Source: Patescibacteria group bacterium (GTDB lineage Bacteria > Patescibacteriota > Patescibacteriia > UBA2591 > JAQUPP01). From it: 64,000 nucleotides of DNA. The notes beneath the pieces were generated by a model. The model worked only from the letters and a program-made list of their open reading frames with translations. It was not told where the DNA came from and did not search any database. Position numbers and translations under genes: made by a program. Each line of letters begins with the position of its first letter. Positions within the stretch are counted from its first letter, which is position 1. The stretch lies in contig JAQUPP010000001.1 in assembly GCA_028716665.1 (NCBI GenBank), positions 349,046 through 413,045 of the forward strand. Direction: 5' to 3'. This document shows positions 1 to 10,776 of the stretch, one piece after another.

Positions 1-3000
1 GTTGGTCATTCACAGGGCACATTTTACACCAATGAGTTATATAATTATCTGATAAACAATGGCATTCCTAAAGAATCAATCGCCGTGTACAATGTAGCCA
101 CACCGGCTGATTTCGTTGCGGGTAATGGTCTGTATCTTACCTCTCAAAACGATAAGGTTGTTAATAATGTTCGTAATGTCGCCAAAAACGTTAAGGCAAA
201 ACAACCACTTCCCCAAAACATTAACATTCCTTTAAACGAACAAAATGATCCCAAGGGTCATTCATTTAGCAGTGTTTATCTTAACAGTGCTCCTAAAAGA
301 ATAATATCAGAAATCAATAATGTTCTAAAAAATTTGGATAATACACAACAAGTAACCAACACTTCTGACTCCGGTTGTTTTAATTTACCGGATCAAAATT
401 TTTCTTATAAAACACAGAAATTAATTTATTTAGTTGCCGATCCTGTAAGCAATGGCATTGTAAAAGCAGGTGTTGTTACATACAATGGTGTTGCTTTTGC
501 CGGCAATGTTTTATCTACCGGCGTGGCGGTTGTTTTAGATCCGATTTTTAATCTTTTTCAGAAAAAAACCGTCGCCAATATTCATAATTTTCAAGCGTTG
601 ATTGGCGGAATTGGCCAATTATTTAATAGACAAGATGGAGATTCTCCATCATCGCTTCAAGAATTATCAGAACAACAATCTCAACAGCTCGAAGATGCTT
701 TAAATGAATTGCAAAATTCAAAAAATTTAATTACTGAACCGATTAATTCAGAAGAACAATCAGAATCATTAAACCAAGAAGATATTGAACAAAATCAAGA
801 ATTGGAAAAACCTCAAGAAGAAATAGAAAAAGATAAAGAACTGGAAGAAGAAAAAATACCCGAGTCACAATACTTTGCCAGCGACGTGGTGATTAATGAA
901 TTAATACCTAATCCAGCAGATGATCAGAACGAATTAATTGAATTATATAATCGTACTGATAAATCCATAGATTTAACTAACTGGACAATTGAAGATAATA
1001 CTGCTCATCCTAAAAATTTAAAAGGAAAAATTATTTCCAGCCATAGTTGGTTGGCGCTTAATGGAGGCAATGATTTTTCTTTTCAATTAAATAATTCAGG
1101 GGATACAACTATTTTAAAATATAACGGAAATTTAATTGATCAGATTGGTTATGGTGATTTTAATGATGGCAATATCCATGATAACCCTGATACACCCTCA
1201 AAAGGAGAATCTTTAATTCGTTATCCTGACGGTCAAGATAAAAATCAAGACGATCAGGATTTTTTAATCACCGCGACTCCAACTCCCGGTTTGGCTAATC
1301 TTTTTACTGAACAGGTGGTTCTAATTTCTAAAACACTAAACCCTGATAAGACGATTAATAATATTTCTTATCAGTCTTTCCAATCTCAAGACGTGGTAAT
1401 TAATGAAATTGCTTGGGCGGGCACTAAAGCCGACTCCACTGATGAATGGATCGAATTTTATAATAATTTGGACAAACCGATTAGTTTGGCCGGTTGGCGA
1501 TTAAAAGCGGCTGATGGCTCTCCGAATATATTATTAACAGGTGAAATTTCGGCTCACGGTTATTGGTTGTTGGAGAGAACAGATGATGAGGTAATTAAAA
1601 ATATTTCCGCCGATCAAATTTACAGCGGAGTATTAGAAGATTCCGGTGAAACCTTGGAATTAATTGATGGAAATGGTAATCGTATTGATTTTATCAATCA
1701 AGAAAATGGTTGGTTGGGCGGCGGCAACGAGACAAAAGCTTCAATGGAAAGAATTAATTCTACCCTAACAGGTGTTGATACTAATAATTGGCAAACCAAT
1801 AATGGACAAAATTTTTTATGGTTTGACGCCAAATATAATCAAATTTTAGGTACGCCTAAATATAAAAATAGCCAACAAGTTGTTAAAGCACAAGACCAAC
1901 ATGACAAATCTTATTTATCATATAAGGCGCTAGACGTGGTGATTAATGAGATTGATTGGACGGGAACCAAGGCGGACACCAATGACGAATGGATCGAACT
2001 TTATAATAATTTGGATCAAGAAATTGATTTATCCGGTTGGACATTAAAAGCCGAAGATGGTTCGCCTGATATTGTTCTCTCGGGTAAAATAGCGGGGAGG
2101 GATTTTTTTATTTTAGAAAGAACAGATGATGAAGCAATTAAAAATGTCACTGCTGATCAAATTTACAGCGGAGTTCTGGGAAATTCAGGGGAAGATTTGG
2201 AATTGAGAGATAAAAATAATAATTTAATTGACGAAGTTGATTGTACTGATGGTTGGTTTTTTGGCGATAATACCACTAAAGCGACAATGGAAAGGATAGA
2301 TTCTTTAGTTTCTGGTAGCTTAAAAGATAATTGGCAAACCGCTTATTTTCAGGATCAAACCGCTCAAGATACAAAAAATAATTTAATTTTTGGCAGTCCT
2401 AAAAATAAAAACACGGGAAAGCCAGAAGGGAATACTAAAGATACAATTCCGCCGGAAATTAAGTTAACTCAAAAACCGGCAACATCAACTAATTTGACTA
2501 TAGCTAATTTTGAGTTTTCTATTAACGAAGAGGGAAATTTTCTTTGTAAAATTGACGATCAAAATTTAGAATCTTGTTCGTCACCGAAAATTTATTCAAA
2601 TCTCGCCGAAGGAAATCACATTTTTTATATTAAAGCGGTTGATCAGGCAGATAATTTTTCAGAAATAACTTATTCTTGGACTATTGATTTAACCGGATTA
2701 ATTTCTTCTCCAACTACTTCTGGTATTTTTAATTTTTCAACTTGGCCTAATCAAATCAATGGAATCGCCTCGTCAAATGTCAGCTCTACTGATTTGTTGT
2801 TGGTAGAAGTTAAAATTCAAAATAAATCAGAAAATAAATATTTAGGTTATACTACTTCTACTATAGGTTGGATTGATGAACCGACCTGGCTGGAAACAGT
2901 TTTAAATGAAAATAACTGGCATTTTGATTTGCCGGTTTCTTTATTGACCGAATTACCAGATGGTTTATATTCTATTTCTTCTCAAGCTACTGATTTGGTT

Positions 3001-5688
3001 GGTAATATTCAAAATACAACTTCCACGACTGAATTTATTTTTGATTCTATTTCACCGGAAAAAATTAATAATTTAAAAACAGAGAATTTAGGCGGACTAA
3101 ATTTAAAACTTTCTTGGGATAAGGCTATTGATAATTTATCGGGAATAGATCATTATGAAGTCAATTGGGGGCACAATATTATATCTACGATTGCTAATCA
3201 TCTTGAATTAAATGTTGAGGACGGGGAAGAATGTAATTTCCAAGTTAGAGTAATAGATAGAGCAGGTAATTCAGGAGATTGGTCAGAACCGATTTCATAT
3301 TTTATTAAATTGCCTTCAGTGGTAATTAGTGAAGTTCAAATTACCGGTCAGACAGTTAACGATGAATTTATTGAACTTTATAATCCAACAGAAGCCCCAA
3401 TTGATTTAACTGGTTATATTTTAAAAAAGAAAACTAGTGGTGGTAGCGAAAGTAACTTGATAGTTAATAGTCGATTCGTAGATAAAATTATTCAGCCTAA
3501 AGGTTTCCTATTGTTGGTGCCAGAAGAAAATTATTTAGGATCAGTAACACCAGATATTCGTTGGCCTAAAAGTTATTCTTTAGCCCCAGCTAATACTTTA
3601 ATTCTTTATAATCCAGAAGAAAAAATTATTGATAAGGTTGGTTGGGGGCAAGCAATAGATTTTGAAACCGTTGCAGCGTCAGAGCCAATAGTAGCTAGTC
3701 AATCAATTGAAAGAAATAATTTTCAAGATACAGATAATAATTTTAATGATTTTATTGTTCAGGCGATTCCAAGTCCAATAAGCTCAAAAGGACTATGGTT
3801 AAACGGTTGGCAAAAAAGAAAATTATTAGTGATTGACAATACTCAAAATAATAATGATTTAATTGATTTCGAGATTAATATAGGGATTGACTATGAGTCC
3901 GAAATGAATCATGACTTTTCTGATATCCGTTTTACCGATTCTGATAAGACAACTCTTTTGAATTACGGTTGGGATATTAATGACGACGGCACTGACCAAA
4001 AACAAAATGAATATTCCGCTACGGCAGTAGTTAAAATTCCTTTTATCCCAAAACGCGCTCAAAAAATTATTTATCTTTATTATGATAATCCTTCAGCCTT
4101 ACCAGTCGCCAATTTAGAAACGACTCTTACTTGGTTTGATCATTTTACAACCGATAGAAGCAGTGAATATGAAAATTTTAATATTGAATGGGATACAACC
4201 GATTCAGCAATTTATGCTCATTATGGCTGGGCGGCAAAAATATATCCGAAAGATTTAAATATCAAAAATGCTTTAATTAAAACAAAATTTTATCAAAATG
4301 ACGGTGGTTATTTTGAGGATAGATATATGGGGCTTGAATATAGATATATAGATGATAATAATTTATTTAGGATAAGTGGTAGGTCAGAAATTAATTATGA
4401 TGATCCGCTGAGCAAGGGAATTAGGTGGGAGAAAATAATAAATGGAACTAAAACTTTAAAAAAATTAGATGACAACGCCGACGTTATTAGGAAAGAATGG
4501 CAAAACATTACAATATCTTCTTATGAAGGTGAACATAATATTCAATGGAAAAGTGCTAATTGGGATTTAAGTTGGTCTGATATTGAAAATCAACAAAATG
4601 TAGCCGGTAATATTGGTATTTGGTTTTGGAAATATAATCCTGGTGGTTGTCCAACTCCAAAAGCCGATTATTTTTATATTCGCCAAAATACAAAATCTTG
4701 GCCAACTGTTTTTGAGGTCGCAGAAAATTATCAGCCGATTATTTTAGGGAATACTCCATATTTAGAAATTCCGGGTTGGGAAAAAAGAAAAGAAATAATT
4801 ATTACTAATAATAATACTAAAGATTTAGTTAATTTTGAAGTCAACGTAAATATTTCTCATGATTCTGTAATGAATCCTGATTTTTCTGACATCCGTTTTA
4901 CCGATTCTGATAAGACAACTCTTTTGAATTACGGTTGGGATATTAATGACGACGGCACTGACCAAAAACAAAATGAATATTCCGCTACGGCAGTAGTTAA
5001 AATTCCTTTAATACCTGCTTCTTCTGAAACAAAAATTTATATGTATTATGGAAATAAATCTGCGTCGACTGTCGCCAATTTAGAAACCACTCTTACTTGG
5101 TTTGATCATTTTAAGACTGATAGAAGTAGTGAATATGAGGTTTTTAATATGCTTTGGAATACTTCTAATTCACAAATTGTTTCTCATTATGGTTGGGCTA
5201 ATTCAATATATCCTAAAAATTTAAACATTAAAGACGCAATTATTAAAACGTATTATCAATTAGGTGGCGGGGGTCAATTTGAAGATAGACAAATAGGGCT
5301 TCAATATCGTTATACAGATGATAATAATTTTTGGAGAATTTATGGTGAAGGTCCGAGAAATTATAATCCACCAGAAAAAGGAATATATTGGAAAAGGGTA
5401 ATAAGTGGGAGCTATACTATAAAAAATTCAGATATTAGTCAGTGGTTCTCACAATCACAATGGCATAATTTAAAAATAACTCTTTTAGATATTAATCATC
5501 ACATAGAATGGTTAGGGGAAACTATAAATGAAAATTGGTCAGATATTGATACTTATCAGAATGTGGCGGGCAGGGTAATGATTTGGTTTGGAAAATTAAT
5601 TCCAGGAGGATGCCCGGATGCTTATGCGGATTATTTTTATATCCGCCAAAATGCGTCAGTAATGCCAACAGTAAGTTTTGAAGAATAA
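1..5688 (+). CDS. Giant surface/secreted multidomain protein, 5'-truncated: alpha/beta-hydrolase-like N-terminal part, acidic linker, 4 lamin-tail domains, Ig/FN3-like domains, 2 DUF2341+lectin-like modules
   Basis: Frame 1 is open from base 1 (VGHSQGTFYTNELYNYL...) into the 85..5688 ORF, so the true start lies upstream. LTD starts VVINE/VVISE..DE(W/F)IELYN occur at ~886, 1393, 1936 and 3319. An Ig-like segment reads DTIPP..EGNHIFYIKAVDQADN. DUF2341 motifs W.KRK.I.I.N..DFSDIRFTDSD..IY.YY start at ~3800 and ~4770. Confidence 0.8.
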   Translation, partial: VGHSQGTFYTNELYNYLINNGIPKESIAVYNVATPADFVAGNGLYLTSQNDKVVNNVRNVAKNVKAKQPLPQNINIPLNEQNDPKGHSFSSVYLNSAPKRIISEINNVLKNLDNTQQVTNTSDSGCFNLPDQNFSYKTQKLIYLVADPVSNGIVKAGVVTYNGVAFAGNVLSTGVAVVLDPIFNLFQKKTVANIHNFQALIGGIGQLFNRQDGDSPSSLQELSEQQSQQLEDALNELQNSKNLITEPINSEEQSESLNQEDIEQNQELEKPQEEIEKDKELEEEKIPESQYFASDVVINELIPNPADDQNELIELYNRTDKSIDLTNWTIEDNTAHPKNLKGKIISSHSWLALNGGNDFSFQLNNSGDTTILKYNGNLIDQIGYGDFNDGNIHDNPDTPSKGESLIRYPDGQDKNQDDQDFLITATPTPGLANLFTEQVVLISKTLNPDKTINNISYQSFQSQDVVINEIAWAGTKADSTDEWIEFYNNLDKPISLAGWRLKAADGSPNILLTGEISAHGYWLLERTDDEVIKNISADQIYSGVLEDSGETLELIDGNGNRIDFINQENGWLGGGNETKASMERINSTLTGVDTNNWQTNNGQNFLWFDAKYNQILGTPKYKNSQQVVKAQDQHDKSYLSYKALDVVINEIDWTGTKADTNDEWIELYNNLDQEIDLSGWTLKAEDGSPDIVLSGKIAGRDFFILERTDDEAIKNVTADQIYSGVLGNSGEDLELRDKNNNLIDEVDCTDGWFFGDNTTKATMERIDSLVSGSLKDNWQTAYFQDQTAQDTKNNLIFGSPKNKNTGKPEGNTKDTIPPEIKLTQKPATSTNLTIANFEFSINEEGNFLCKIDDQNLESCSSPKIYSNLAEGNHIFYIKAVDQADNFSEITYSWTIDLTGLISSPTTSGIFNFSTWPNQINGIASSNVSSTDLLLVEVKIQNKSENKYLGYTTSTIGWIDEPTWLETVLNENNWHFDLPVSLLTELPDGLYSISSQATDLVGNIQNTTSTTEFIFDSISPEKINNLKTENLGGLNLKLSWDKAIDNLSGIDHYEVNWGHNIISTIANHLELNVEDGEECNFQVRVIDRAGNSGDWSEPISYFIKLPSVVISEVQITGQTVNDEFIELYNPTEAPIDLTGYILKKKTSGGSESNLIVNSRFVDKIIQPKGFLLLVPEENYLGSVTPDIRWPKSYSLAPANTLILYNPEEKIIDKVGWGQAIDFETVAASEPIVASQSIERNNFQDTDNNFNDFIVQAIPSPISSKGLWLNGWQKRKLLVIDNTQNNNDLIDFEINIGIDYESEMNHDFSDIRFTDSDKTTLLNYGWDINDDGTDQKQNEYSATAVVKIPFIPKRAQKIIYLYYDNPSALPVANLETTLTWFDHFTTDRSSEYENFNIEWDTTDSAIYAHYGWAAKIYPKDLNIKNALIKTKFYQNDGGYFEDRYMGLEYRYIDDNNLFRISGRSEINYDDPLSKGIRWEKIINGTKTLKKLDDNADVIRKEWQNITISSYEGEHNIQWKSANWDLSWSDIENQQNVAGNIGIWFWKYNPGGCPTPKADYFYIRQNTKSWPTVFEVAENYQPIILGNTPYLEIPGWEKRKEIIITNNNTKDLVNFEVNVNISHDSVMNPDFSDIRFTDSDKTTLLNYGWDINDDGTDQKQNEYSATAVVKIPLIPASSETKIYMYYGNKSASTVANLETTLTWFDHFKTDRSSEYEVFNMLWNTSNSQIVSHYGWANSIYPKNLNIKDAIIKTYYQLGGGGQFEDRQIGLQYRYTDDNNFWRIYGEGPRNYNPPEKGIYWKRVISGSYTIKNSDISQWFSQSQWHNLKITLLDINHHIEWLGETINENWSDIDTYQNVAGRVMIWFGKLIPGGCPDAYADYFYIRQNASVMPTVSFEE
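3925..5009 (+). repeat. 119-bp exact direct repeat (3925-4043 = 4891-5009) within the duplicated DUF2341 modules
   Basis: Base-by-base comparison shows atccgttttaccgattctgataag...gtagttaaaattccttt is identical in both copies. The offset is 966 nt (322 codons). Confidence 0.9.
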
Positions 5689-7539: not shown

Positions 7540-9651
7540 ATGAGTAATATGAAGAAAAAAGAACTGAAGAAATCAAAAGAAAAACTTAATTTTTCATCTT
7601 TATCGCCGACGCGTCGGCTGGTTTTGGCCATAGTTTTGTTTACTTTGGCCATTATTTTATTATTGGGATTATGCGGTTTAGCCGGAGTGGCGGGCGAACT
7701 CTTGTCTGTCGGCCTTAAAATTATCTTGGGCTGGGCGAGTTGGACAATTCCAATTGCTTTGGCGATTGTCGGAATAATGTGCCTTAATCATGAAAAAATT
7801 CAGGAGATTTATCCTAAAAGACCTTTTGGGATAAGATTGGCCGGATTATTTTTCTCAGTTATTATGTTGGCGGCCATTTTTCATATTCATTTTGTGGATA
7901 ATAAATTAGCCCTTGCGGCCTACAAAGGAGGCGGATATATCGGTTATGGAATAGGTTATGTGATTGTTAACACATTTGGAATTTGGGCGAGCTGGGTGAT
8001 TTTCGTCTGCGCTTTCGCAATTGGCGGAATTATCGCTTTTTCAAATTTAAAGAAAAAATTATCAAAAGAAGAATTGGAAGCGGAAGCGGAAAAAAAGAAA
8101 GAAAATCTTGCTCAGGCGGGTTTTCAAAGTTTGAAGGCGATTCTGGCCAAAAAAGATAAATTGGTTTTAAAACCTGATAATGAAAAAAATAAAATTTTAG
8201 AAAAAACTGAAGACAATTTAAAATTGTCCAAAGGAATTGCCGGTTTTGGTTCAACAAAAATTCGTCCCAAGATTGAACTGCCTTTGGATTTATTGGATTC
8301 CAGTTCTGAGAAACCCAATTCAGGGGATATAAAAAATAATAAATTGATTATTCAAAAAACTTTGGAAAGTTTTGGCATTCCGGTGGAAATGGGAGAAGTG
8401 AAAACCGGTCCGACGGTCACTCAATATACTTTAAAACCGGCTGATGGCGTAAAAATTTCGCAAATTACGGGCTTGCAGAATGATTTGGCTTTGGCCCTAG
8501 CCGCTCATCCGATTAGAATTGAAGCGCCGATTCCGGGTCAATCTTTGGTTGGAATTGAAATACCGAACAAGCAAAAAGCAGTTGTCAGATTAAGAGAAGT
8601 TTTTGAGAGCGCTGAGTTTAGAAAAAATAAAACGAATTTATCGTTAGCCATAGGCAAAGATGTGGCGGGCGATATATGGTTTGGAGACTTGGGAAAAATG
8701 CCGCACTTGTTGGTGGCCGGTTCAACCGGAAGCGGAAAAACCGTAATGCTTAATTCGGTTATCGTAAATTTGATTTATCAAAATACTCCCGAAGATTTGA
8801 AATTTATTTTCATTGATCCAAAAAGAGTGGAACTTACTTTATATAATGACTTGCCTCATTTGTTGACGCCGGTTATCACCGATGTTAATAAAACCATTAA
8901 CGCTTTAAAATGGTCAATCAAAGAAATGGAGCGACGTTTTGAAGTGATGAGTCAGGCTCAAAAAAGAGATATCTTTGCTTACAATAAAGATGCCAAAACA
9001 AAAATGCCGTTTATCGTGGTGGTGATTGACGAATTGGCTGATTTAATGATCACTTCGCCACAGGAAGTCGAAGCTTGCATTATCAGGCTGTCTCAGATGG
9101 CCAGGGCGACCGGAATTCACTTAATAATGGCCACCCAGCGTCCGTCAGTGGATATTATCACCGGTTTGATCAAGGCCAATATTACTTCCAGAATAGCTTT
9201 CTCAGTGGCCTCAATGACTGATTCAAGAACAATTTTGGATTTCTCAGGCGCGGAAAAATTATTGGGCCGCGGCGACATGTTGTTTATTTCATCGGAATTA
9301 TCCAAACCAAAAAGATTGCAAGGTGCTTATGTCTCAGATGAAGAAATCAAAAGAATTGTTGAATATTTAAGAAATGTCGCCAAACCGGAATATCAAGATG
9401 AAATTGTTGCGCCTCCGCAAAACGAATCGGGAAATAATTTAAGCGATTTAGTGGAAGATGAAATGCTGTCAGACGCCAGAGAAGTGGTTATTCAAGCCGG
9501 CAAGGCCTCTGCTTCGCTTTTACAAAGAAGATTGAGAATCGGTTATGCCAGAGCGGCGAGATTATTGGATTTATTGGAAGAAGAAGAAACAATCGGACCC
9601 GGTGAAGGAGCCAAGCCGAGAGATGTTTACAAGAAAATGCCTAATGACTAA
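7540..9651 (+). CDS. ftsK: DNA translocase FtsK/SpoIIIE
   Basis: N-terminal TM helices, PHLLVAGSTGSGKT Walker A, IDELADLM, ATQRPS, and the gamma domain LQRRLRIGYARAARL. Confidence 0.97.
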   Translation: MSNMKKKELKKSKEKLNFSSLSPTRRLVLAIVLFTLAIILLLGLCGLAGVAGELLSVGLKIILGWASWTIPIALAIVGIMCLNHEKIQEIYPKRPFGIRLAGLFFSVIMLAAIFHIHFVDNKLALAAYKGGGYIGYGIGYVIVNTFGIWASWVIFVCAFAIGGIIAFSNLKKKLSKEELEAEAEKKKENLAQAGFQSLKAILAKKDKLVLKPDNEKNKILEKTEDNLKLSKGIAGFGSTKIRPKIELPLDLLDSSSEKPNSGDIKNNKLIIQKTLESFGIPVEMGEVKTGPTVTQYTLKPADGVKISQITGLQNDLALALAAHPIRIEAPIPGQSLVGIEIPNKQKAVVRLREVFESAEFRKNKTNLSLAIGKDVAGDIWFGDLGKMPHLLVAGSTGSGKTVMLNSVIVNLIYQNTPEDLKFIFIDPKRVELTLYNDLPHLLTPVITDVNKTINALKWSIKEMERRFEVMSQAQKRDIFAYNKDAKTKMPFIVVVIDELADLMITSPQEVEACIIRLSQMARATGIHLIMATQRPSVDIITGLIKANITSRIAFSVASMTDSRTILDFSGAEKLLGRGDMLFISSELSKPKRLQGAYVSDEEIKRIVEYLRNVAKPEYQDEIVAPPQNESGNNLSDLVEDEMLSDAREVVIQAGKASASLLQRRLRIGYARAARLLDLLEEEETIGPGEGAKPRDVYKKMPND

Positions 9652-9690
9652 TTTCTAATTTCTAATCAAATCCCAATAACTAATGTTCAA
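9636..9690. repeat. Left arm: AATnnCT heptad array, inverted partner of 10046-10097
   Basis: AATGCCT AATGACT AATTTCT AATTTCT AATCA AATCCC AATAACT AATGTTC. Bases 9655-9669 are the exact reverse complement of 10063-10077. Confidence 0.75.
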
Positions 9691-10047
9691 ATGGCTAAAA
9701 ACAAATACGATTTAGAAGAAAGAACAGCAAAATTTGGCGAAGAAATCATTAAGTTTGCTAAGAAAATTCCAGAAAATGCGGTTAATAAACCTTTAATACC
9801 GCAATTAGTTAGAGCAGGAACTAGCGTAGGAGCAAATTATTGTGAAGCTGATAATGCTGAATCTAAAAAGGATTTTAAACACAAAATTGGAATTTGCAAA
9901 AAAGAATCAAGAGAAACCAAACATTGGTTGAGAATAATAGTTATTGCTGCGCCCGAACTAAAGGAAGAGGCAAGAATTTTATGGCAAGAAGCAAAAGAAT
10001 TAAATTTGATTTTTAATGCCATTGTTCATTCAATAAACAATAAATGA
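9691..10047 (+). CDS. Four-helix-bundle protein (23S rRNA IVS protein / Avd-like family)
   Basis: DLEERT..F, QLVRAGTSVGANYCEA..AES.KDF.HK..I.KKE.RET.HWL and EA.EL..IF.AI are typical of the family. Confidence 0.9.
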   Translation: MAKNKYDLEERTAKFGEEIIKFAKKIPENAVNKPLIPQLVRAGTSVGANYCEADNAESKKDFKHKIGICKKESRETKHWLRIIVIAAPELKEEARILWQEAKELNLIFNAIVHSINNK

Positions 10048-10097
10048 TTTGGTTATTAGACATTGATTAGAAATTAGGTCAATTAGAAATTAGATAT
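10046..10097. repeat. Right arm: AGnnATT heptad array
   Basis: TGGTTATT AGACATT GATT AGAAATT AGGTCAATT AGAAATT AGATATT, the reverse complement of the left-arm pattern. Confidence 0.75.
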
Positions 10098-10104
10098 TTT
10101 TTTT

Positions 10105-10776
10105 ATGGCTTTTAGAACTCAATCCATTAAATTTGAAAGTTTGGGCACCATTTTGCGCGATAAAAGAATATCAGAAAGTTGGAGCTTGGAAGATGTTGAA
10201 AAAAAAATAGGCGTGCCGGCTAAATATTTACAATGCATAGAAGAAGACGAATTTTATAAATTGCCCAGTCCGACTTACACCAGAGGATTTTTATTGCAAT
10301 ATGCCGAATTATTGAGATTTAATCCGGAGGAAGTTGTTAATTTGTGGAAAAAAGAATATTCTTATTCGGCTATAAAAGAAACAAAAAACAAGAGAGTCAG
10401 AAAGTTGCCCTTGGTTGAATTCGGCAAAGAAAAATTTTTTGATATTTTCAATTCAAGATATTTTTTTATAGGTTTGGTTTCGTTGGGAGTTCTTCTTTAT
10501 CTTTTTTTCGGTATAAAAAAATTAATGTTTCCGCCGGAGATTCAGCTTTTTTCGCCCAGAACAAATTTGGTTACTCAAGAAACTGCCTTGGTGATTGAAG
10601 GGAAGGTGGGCGAAGGAGTGGATGTATTTATTAACAAGCAAAAGATTGAAGATATGACAGATAATTATTTTAAGGTGAAATTGGAACTTGAGAGAGGCAT
10701 AAATAATATTGAAATTTCGGCCAAAAAGAAATATTCAAGAGAACGAATCATTAAGCGCCAAATTATTGTAGAATAA
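10105..10776 (+). CDS. RodZ-like HTH membrane protein with C-terminal Ig-like domain
   Basis: LG..LR..R....SLEDV..YL..IE...LP...Y.RGFL..YA..L HTH, one TM helix, and a position downstream of ftsK. Confidence 0.8.

Follow-up and report, generated by a model that had tools for sequence, protein, structure and literature searches.

A mobile, hairpin-armed four-helix-bundle gene cassette behind ftsK in a Patescibacteria genome, and silent changes confined to upstream gene ends at such sites

Certain intervening sequences (IVS) of 23S rRNA genes, such as those of Coxiella burnetii and Leptospira, carry an open reading frame of the S23p family (PF05635). According to the accessible portion of PMC4990558, this frame sits in the loop of a terminal stem, heptamers precede it, and the elements have spread horizontally in a sporadic manner. 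The cassette described here, which separates ftsK from a rodZ-like gene in a Patescibacteria genome (G000), shares these features and encodes a protein of the same family; a terminal stem around the S23p frame is predicted for it. Unlike the IVS, it lies between protein-coding genes and not in an rRNA helix, it overwrites the end of a gene, and it has many paralogues as well as gene-less copies per genome. The cassette is real, mobile and IVS-like, and ORF-bearing 23S rRNA IVS are its closest known kind.

Other described systems resemble the cassette in part. Its protein has the four-helix fold of Avd from diversity-generating retroelements (DGRs), as judged from a predicted model compared with 4DWL, but no reverse transcriptase (PF00078) was found in G000, and the window's profile has no sequence match to bAvd. 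Group I introns as well as homing endonucleases reuse sites and co-convert only 5′ sequence from diverged donors (PMC2504315, in the part available). Homing-type co-conversion of flanking host sequence is seen statistically for the cassettes, although not in all arm families. However, no nuclease or intron fold was detected in the cassette, and in contrast to group I introns it occupies many unrelated targets at positions outside reading frames. RAYT/REPIN and Ssn/SRM elements, as far as the available portions of PMC3337134, PMC3116915 and PMC11893778 describe them, likewise place a small gene between its own repeats and leave many gene-less intergenic hairpins. Their proteins are HUH or GIY-YIG nucleases, whereas the cassette protein has no known catalytic fold; unlike theirs, the cassette arms are tandem arrays of 7- and 9-nt units, and no HUH Y1 transposase was found in G000. 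Finally, the heptamer repeats TAACTGA of Beggiatoaceae and GGGAATC of Xanthomonas form intergenic arrays that lie near start codons or occur as convergent pairs, like the arms (excerpts of PMC4679880 and PMC4692102). The term “four helix” does not occur in either text, so they draw no link to the gene family under that name, and PMC5524665 and PMC3936711, in their accessible parts, only list such four-helix-bundle genes within operons and cas loci. In the openly accessible literature, no report was found that joins the TIGR02436 family to inverted periodic arms outside rRNA.

The window, which is the whole stretch of 64,000 nucleotides analysed here, belongs to a genome of 974 kb in two contigs that is 98.9% complete. 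Two genomes of the same genus, G001 and G002, were used as comparators. All features of the locus are on the forward strand. The host part of ftsK that is common to the same-genus relatives occupies 7540..9621 and encodes Pfam FtsK domains, and the C-terminal 249 amino acids of FtsK are 98-99% identical to those of G001 and G002. The following codons D-V-Y-K-K (9622..9636) are synonymous variants unique to G000 and form a candidate co-conversion tract, the last one or two of which may be part of the A-rich end of the arm. The left arm (9636..9690) then leads into the four-helix-bundle gene (9691..10047), which encodes 118 amino acids, and this is followed by the complementary right arm (10048..10097). 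Seven T (10098..10104) separate the right arm from the start codon of the rodZ-like host gene (10105..10776), a start that the insertion left unaltered. This gene contains an HTH_25 domain, while its match to the RodZ model stays under the cut-off of that model. Metagenome contigs span the left junction (9277-9677) and the ORF with the right junction (9648-10278) without differences; the runs that match both junctions are possibly the window's source and are not independent support. A promoter and terminator scan gave results at chance level, and an Rfam search of the ftsK/rodZ-like locus gave no match.

The first-pass annotation of this DNA had described a gene enclosed by inverted repeats, and the arms bear this out. 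Their inverted-repeat score is 44, compared to a maximum of 36 in 5000 dinucleotide shuffles, none of which matched the arms. The exact 15-bp inverted pair that it had placed at 9655-9669 and 10063-10077 is present, extends to 29 nt at 83%, and arose in none of 1000 shuffles. By flank complementarity, the cassette gene ranks third among the 916 ORFs of G000. Both flanks had been read as built from heptads, which holds for the left arm, whose CTAAT cores (9641, 9648, 9655 and 9662) have a 7-nt periodicity matched by 0/1000 shuffles, but not for the right arm, whose ATTAG cores are spaced 11, 7, 9 and 7, a pattern matched by 13/1000. Across 77 homologues, cores 7 nt apart and cores 9 nt apart occur with similar frequency (83 vs 110 upstream, 95 vs 89 downstream). 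As had been noted, the left array supplies the end of ftsK, namely four codons and the stop (9637-9651), such that the ftsK ORF now spans 7540-9651, and the right array ends 7 nt before the next ATG. The proposed pairing of the arms agrees with a predicted stem (z -3.9) that can form on either strand and contains 36 arm-to-arm pairs with probability >0.5. G-U wobble mismatches do not favour the mRNA strand (93 vs 100).

The cassette protein matches PF05635 (E 5e-15) and TIGR02436 (E 3e-21), with scores of 56 and 75.6 bits compared to curated cut-offs of 33.8 and 24 bits. Its predicted structure (pLDDT 95) has four long helices and is closer to 2RLD and 2GSC (TM 0.76-0.82) than to bAvd (4DWL, TM 0.68). 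Both of these solved family members have five chains, and by analogy with them the cassette protein is predicted to form a pentameric ring. It is under purifying selection, with dN/dS of 0.04-0.20 in five unsaturated pairs (three further pairs were saturated and ignored), and residues Q38, N49 and E75 are invariant across 41 aligned sequences. No known catalytic fold or nuclease family appears among its top profile and structure matches. Its closest homologues are mostly records labelled as Patescibacteria groups; a search of viral contigs with this single protein returned 5 candidates, none confirmed as relatives.

Empty sites between ftsK and rodZ, which the first-pass annotation had suggested looking for in relatives, were found in both same-genus genomes. 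In G001 and G002, ftsK ends in an acidic five-codon tail with its stop 6-7 nt before the rodZ-like start, and this empty site has neither arms nor a duplication. The codons of the left arm stand in place of the acidic tail. Since the empty alleles hold the tail and the 6-7 nt spacer at this position, the insertion replaced the last five codons of ftsK, its stop and the spacer, with loss of ~20 nt of target and no target duplication. The cassette is a recently acquired replacement of the ftsK tail and the gap before the next gene. The empty alleles recur in contigs of one groundwater run and in two metagenome records, none of which were counted as independent. In 29 other genomes, the rodZ-like gene comes after ftsK in 24, and the cassette protein had no match at any of the ftsK loci; by eye, several of these loci hold gene-less periodic arrays, one of them of the window's own type. 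The suggestion that the arms pair to loop out or excise the ORF was not supported at the DNA level, as no clean excision joint is present among the joints listed for the window site or for the site of a recent duplicate, in contigs of four metagenome runs each. Joints between the arms had extra letters inside, and one matches a gene-less copy elsewhere in G000. Nor could excision bring back the empty allele, given that ~20 nt of host sequence were lost to the insertion.

Seven TIGR02436 genes over the cut-off are found in G000, each with flanks that are periodic by eye. Five of them fall within the top 24 of the 916 ORFs for flank complementarity, and the other two ranked low with ORF predictions that were fused or frameshifted. 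Two copies at unrelated sites differ by only 7 coding differences, 6 of them silent, and their common stretch starts with the final 7 nt of one host gene. This would fit capture of an upstream flank, judged from sequence, and microhomology explains it equally well. Another copy, which belongs to the window's subfamily and lies at C1:328914-329277 of G000, is split by a frameshift at an A run, and the G002 site is empty. At C1:315563-316621 (L002) and at a second locus (L041), in G000 and G001, a four-helix-bundle gene and the gene downstream form one in-frame fusion joined by the right arm of the former, and the downstream gene has what we take to be a prepilin-like motif. Arrays resembling the L002 arms occur inside predicted ORFs at ~20 sites of G000, while arms of the window's family contain stops instead.

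Across the order, 30 of 44 genomes have 1-19 TIGR02436 matches each, a few of which are true Avd genes; 14/44 have no match, and several copies contain stops. Of 80 homologous loci, 77 were usable, three being left out for short flanks, and inverted arms are present in 57 of the 77 at p<=0.01. The 72 upstream genes fall into 64 clusters, and no ftsK or rodZ match occurs among the 80 loci. Because the homologues carry inverted arms and are not syntenic, they resemble neither genes with ordinary AT-rich flanks nor a stably placed host gene. The upstream gene is co-oriented in 72 of 74 homologues with a called upstream neighbour, and the downstream gene in 63 of 72 with a called downstream neighbour. 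Arms end <=15 nt from the downstream start in 26/45 homologues and from the upstream stop in 37/53. Arms are missing from three true DGR Avd genes that neighbour reverse transcriptases. In G001, G012 and G031, Avd-like genes adjoin reverse transcriptases (L053, L044 and L177), and these are likely DGRs.

Arm-only hairpins also occupy stop-to-start gaps in G000. Three of these in G000 and one in G002 have a common internal loop at different sites, which indicates that gene-less hairpins moved as units; two of ten aligned gene-less copies are inverted relative to the host genes. In G001 (C28, L073), the remains of another family's hairpin enclose a gene-less hairpin of the window's family. Among the three same-genus genomes, orthologous slots are frequently occupied by a different armed family in a relative, and one slot holds three different four-helix genes in the three genomes, one of them with 70% DNA identity to the window's cassette. 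In another slot (G002 C1:29816-30142, L180), a GxxExxY-like PDDEXK_3 gene with inverted periodic arms of its own is found where G000 has a four-helix cassette. Reuse of slots by a different family is above chance in G002 (9 vs 10/11/192, p=3e-6) and in G001 (5 vs 18/9/233, p=0.004), in 511 gene-pair comparisons between genomes that are related. These figures come from only three related genomes, with ~0.70 and 0.74 Mb covered of roughly 0.9 Mb in each comparator, and from slots labelled with an arm library by BLAST of AT-rich arms, in which labels can err and one library arm is empty. An unrelated inverted-repeat element of ~210-330 bp behaves otherwise. Its insertions at start codons are clean and duplicate 3-4 nt, the ATG among them, as at C1:44438, C1:119084, C1:439020, C2:144910 and C2:234051 of G000, and it differs at 10 slots within the genus.

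What is new here is an excess of silent changes at armed-element slots that is restricted to the upstream gene. In ftsK, the last 5 of 409 conserved codons are all synonymous variants unique to G000, compared to 42/409 overall, in a near star-shaped trio of G000, G001 and G002. Of the last 10 upstream codons at the recent duplicate, 9 differ silently from G002, and G001 mostly agrees with G002; at these two full cassettes, the altered tract is derived in the cassette-bearing genome. Over the last 8 conserved upstream codons, 52 slots with an armed-element change differ silently at a rate of 0.286. Unchanged slots (178) have a rate of 0.168 (p=1e-6), and slots otherwise changed (143) one of 0.216 (p=0.003), the latter with a smaller excess of their own. 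The clean-inserting element, used as a control at 10 slots, gives no upstream excess (0.156), and the first 8 codons of the downstream gene show none (0.125 vs 0.121; paired test of upstream against downstream, p=1.6e-4). The upstream excess persists when only alignments extending to both stops are used (36 slots, p=1.6e-6), when the three sites that prompted the test are removed (49 slots, p=9e-6), and against long unchanged spacers (38 slots, p=0.005). The window's family and three others (9, 14, 3 and 2 slots) account for it, whereas two arm families (20 and 7 slots) show no excess, and neither do slots retaining the same family. Stop codons differ in 15/40 comparisons vs 8/203, and five silent changes in a row occur in only 37 of 27545 gene-body windows. 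Any genus can be scored for such a one-sided silent tract, which as a footprint restricts the mechanism to routes of the homing type.

For a silent tract that leaves the protein intact, the simplest explanation is recombination with a diverged homologue, which is also the argument made for 5′-only co-conversion at group I introns (PMC2504315, in the part available). Such cassettes, in which no known mobility enzyme is encoded, likely spread when recombination brings them in along with part of the adjoining gene of another lineage. The specific reading preferred for this locus, which we give about an even chance of being right, is that a mobile hairpin-armed cassette replaced the ftsK end and the gap through homing-like recombination of DNA, the diverged donor having had the cassette behind the same gene end beforehand. 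The incoming DNA would consist of the gene end plus the element and would pair by short, imperfect homology with the gene end of the recipient. Recombination would then replace roughly 15-30 nt of the gene end together with the former spacer, reaching close to the following start codon. New slots may be seeded by rarer events at microhomologies; short-patch double illegitimate recombination is a known process. In the weakest step, the pentameric protein would bind its own periodic arms as single-stranded nucleic acid and promote or protect recombination, that of gene-less copies included. We infer such binding from the linkage of gene and arms, the selection on the protein and the ring shape of the family. 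A donor of gene end and element would jointly explain target replacement, slot reuse, family swapping and the sense orientation. This step is only inferred, since one metagenome pattern scan for a donor with the same gene end and element gave only two empty alleles. Eight distant pairs with a common upstream gene show no clear convergence at the gene end; in one of the distant pairs, similarity is much higher for the cassette than for the upstream gene, yet the downstream gene is alike too. Given the co-orientation with the upstream gene in 72/74 homologues, a DNA route must invoke homing or selection.

The silent changes could also be thought to have come from local error-prone repair or relaxed constraint beside a long hairpin and not from donors, the cassette itself moving by some other illegitimate recombination. 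This would account for the donor not being found and for the excess in otherwise changed slots. In addition, part of the silent contrast is relaxed constraint, because unchanged short spacers depress divergence at the gene end (-0.06). However, the excess remains against long unchanged spacers, the tracts of 5/5 and 9/10 silent changes leave the protein intact, runs of five silent changes are as rare in gene bodies as given above, and no excess appears in same-family slots or on the downstream side; we regard this explanation as distinctly improbable. A retro-mobile parasite would reach the same one-sided tract in another way. Here, the Avd-like protein would bind armed RNA and borrow a reverse transcriptase in trans, and cDNA primed near the downstream start would co-convert only the upstream gene end. 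Group II retrohoming may co-convert on the upstream side only, which the accessible parts of PMC2504315 and PMC8393795 do not confirm. The retro route is attractive because of Avd, since the predicted fold resembles that of bAvd, which is a pentameric reverse transcriptase partner that binds an RNA stem-loop (10.1101/2023.10.23.563531, in the part available), and the sense orientation and the reverse transcriptases in 14/44 genomes of the order agree with it. Even so, the 98.9% complete G000 has no PF00078 match despite its recent duplicate, and copy number is independent of the presence of reverse transcriptases (3.1 on average in the 14 genomes with one vs 2.7 in the other 30, p=0.81). Moreover, the changes in two tracts are by eye not adenine-specific, gene-less copies can be inverted, G-U pairs are without strand bias, and DNA homing also yields one-sided tracts (accessible part of PMC2504315). 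A retro route is thus unlikely.

The cassette might instead be a post-transcriptional module useful to the host, with mobility secondary, in which the protein binds intercistronic arrays or RNase III cuts the stem and so tunes downstream translation. Purifying selection on the protein would be expected of such a module, and heptamer arrays right before start codons have been proposed as regulator sites (PMC4679880, available part). Coxiella RNase III cleaves the IVS stem (PMC4990558, available part), and the presence of an RNase III gene in G000 makes IVS-like cutting of a putative mRNA stem possible. The closeness of the arms to starts and stops also points this way, but it is partly expected, because the median co-directional gap is only 44 nt. 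Against a host role, unrelated arm families replace each other within the same slots, the neighbouring genes are functionally arbitrary, and the family lacks a match in nearly a third of the order (14/44) and includes copies with stops, which leaves the module quite unlikely. Finally, the element could be an ordinary MITE or mobile insertion cassette whose gene is carried along passively while a DDE or HUH transposase acts in trans. Gene-less copies do move as units, one of them can be read as flanked by a TAA duplication, and the GxxExxY-like gene has arms of its own in one slot. At the ftsK site, however, target was lost without duplication, whereas a different element in G000 does insert cleanly with a short one. 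The first-pass description of the cassette as transposase-free is supported for the families searched, as Y1_Tnp was not found in G000 and the IS1595 transposase was not found in 3/3 genus genomes, and we consider passive transposition very unlikely.

Homing-like recombination with a diverged donor, the preferred reading, invites a wider proposal, which we offer tentatively and with the balance of probability against it. TIGR02436 genes would be a widespread, undescribed class of mobile element without a transposase, integrase, nuclease or reverse transcriptase of known kind. Their pentameric ring would read its own 7/9-nt arms, drive homing onto gene ends, co-convert the last codons and mobilise gene-less hairpins. 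These hairpins would account for many unexplained bacterial heptamer repeats, and rRNA intervening sequences would be one landing site and DGR Avd a domesticated relative. To a very large protein family of unknown function, the findings assign a role that can be tested and a candidate ligand, and they offer an origin for unexplained heptamer repeats and a route for the spread of rRNA intervening sequences. Such elements also rewrite the C-termini of core-gene proteins and start-codon contexts in small-genome bacteria.

Two further features of this genome were observed. In G000 alone, ~250 nt interrupt a tRNA at its anticodon (C2:203.3-203.6 kb; L057, about 4360-4615); the interruption had no ARAGORN or Rfam match and is group I intron-like by eye, and the tRNA is Asn by its anticodon in G001 and G002. 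In the window, positions 85-5688 hold a low-complexity ORF of 1867 amino acids with repeated segments, which is probably surface-associated and lies 5′ of a PMT-type glycosyltransferase gene.
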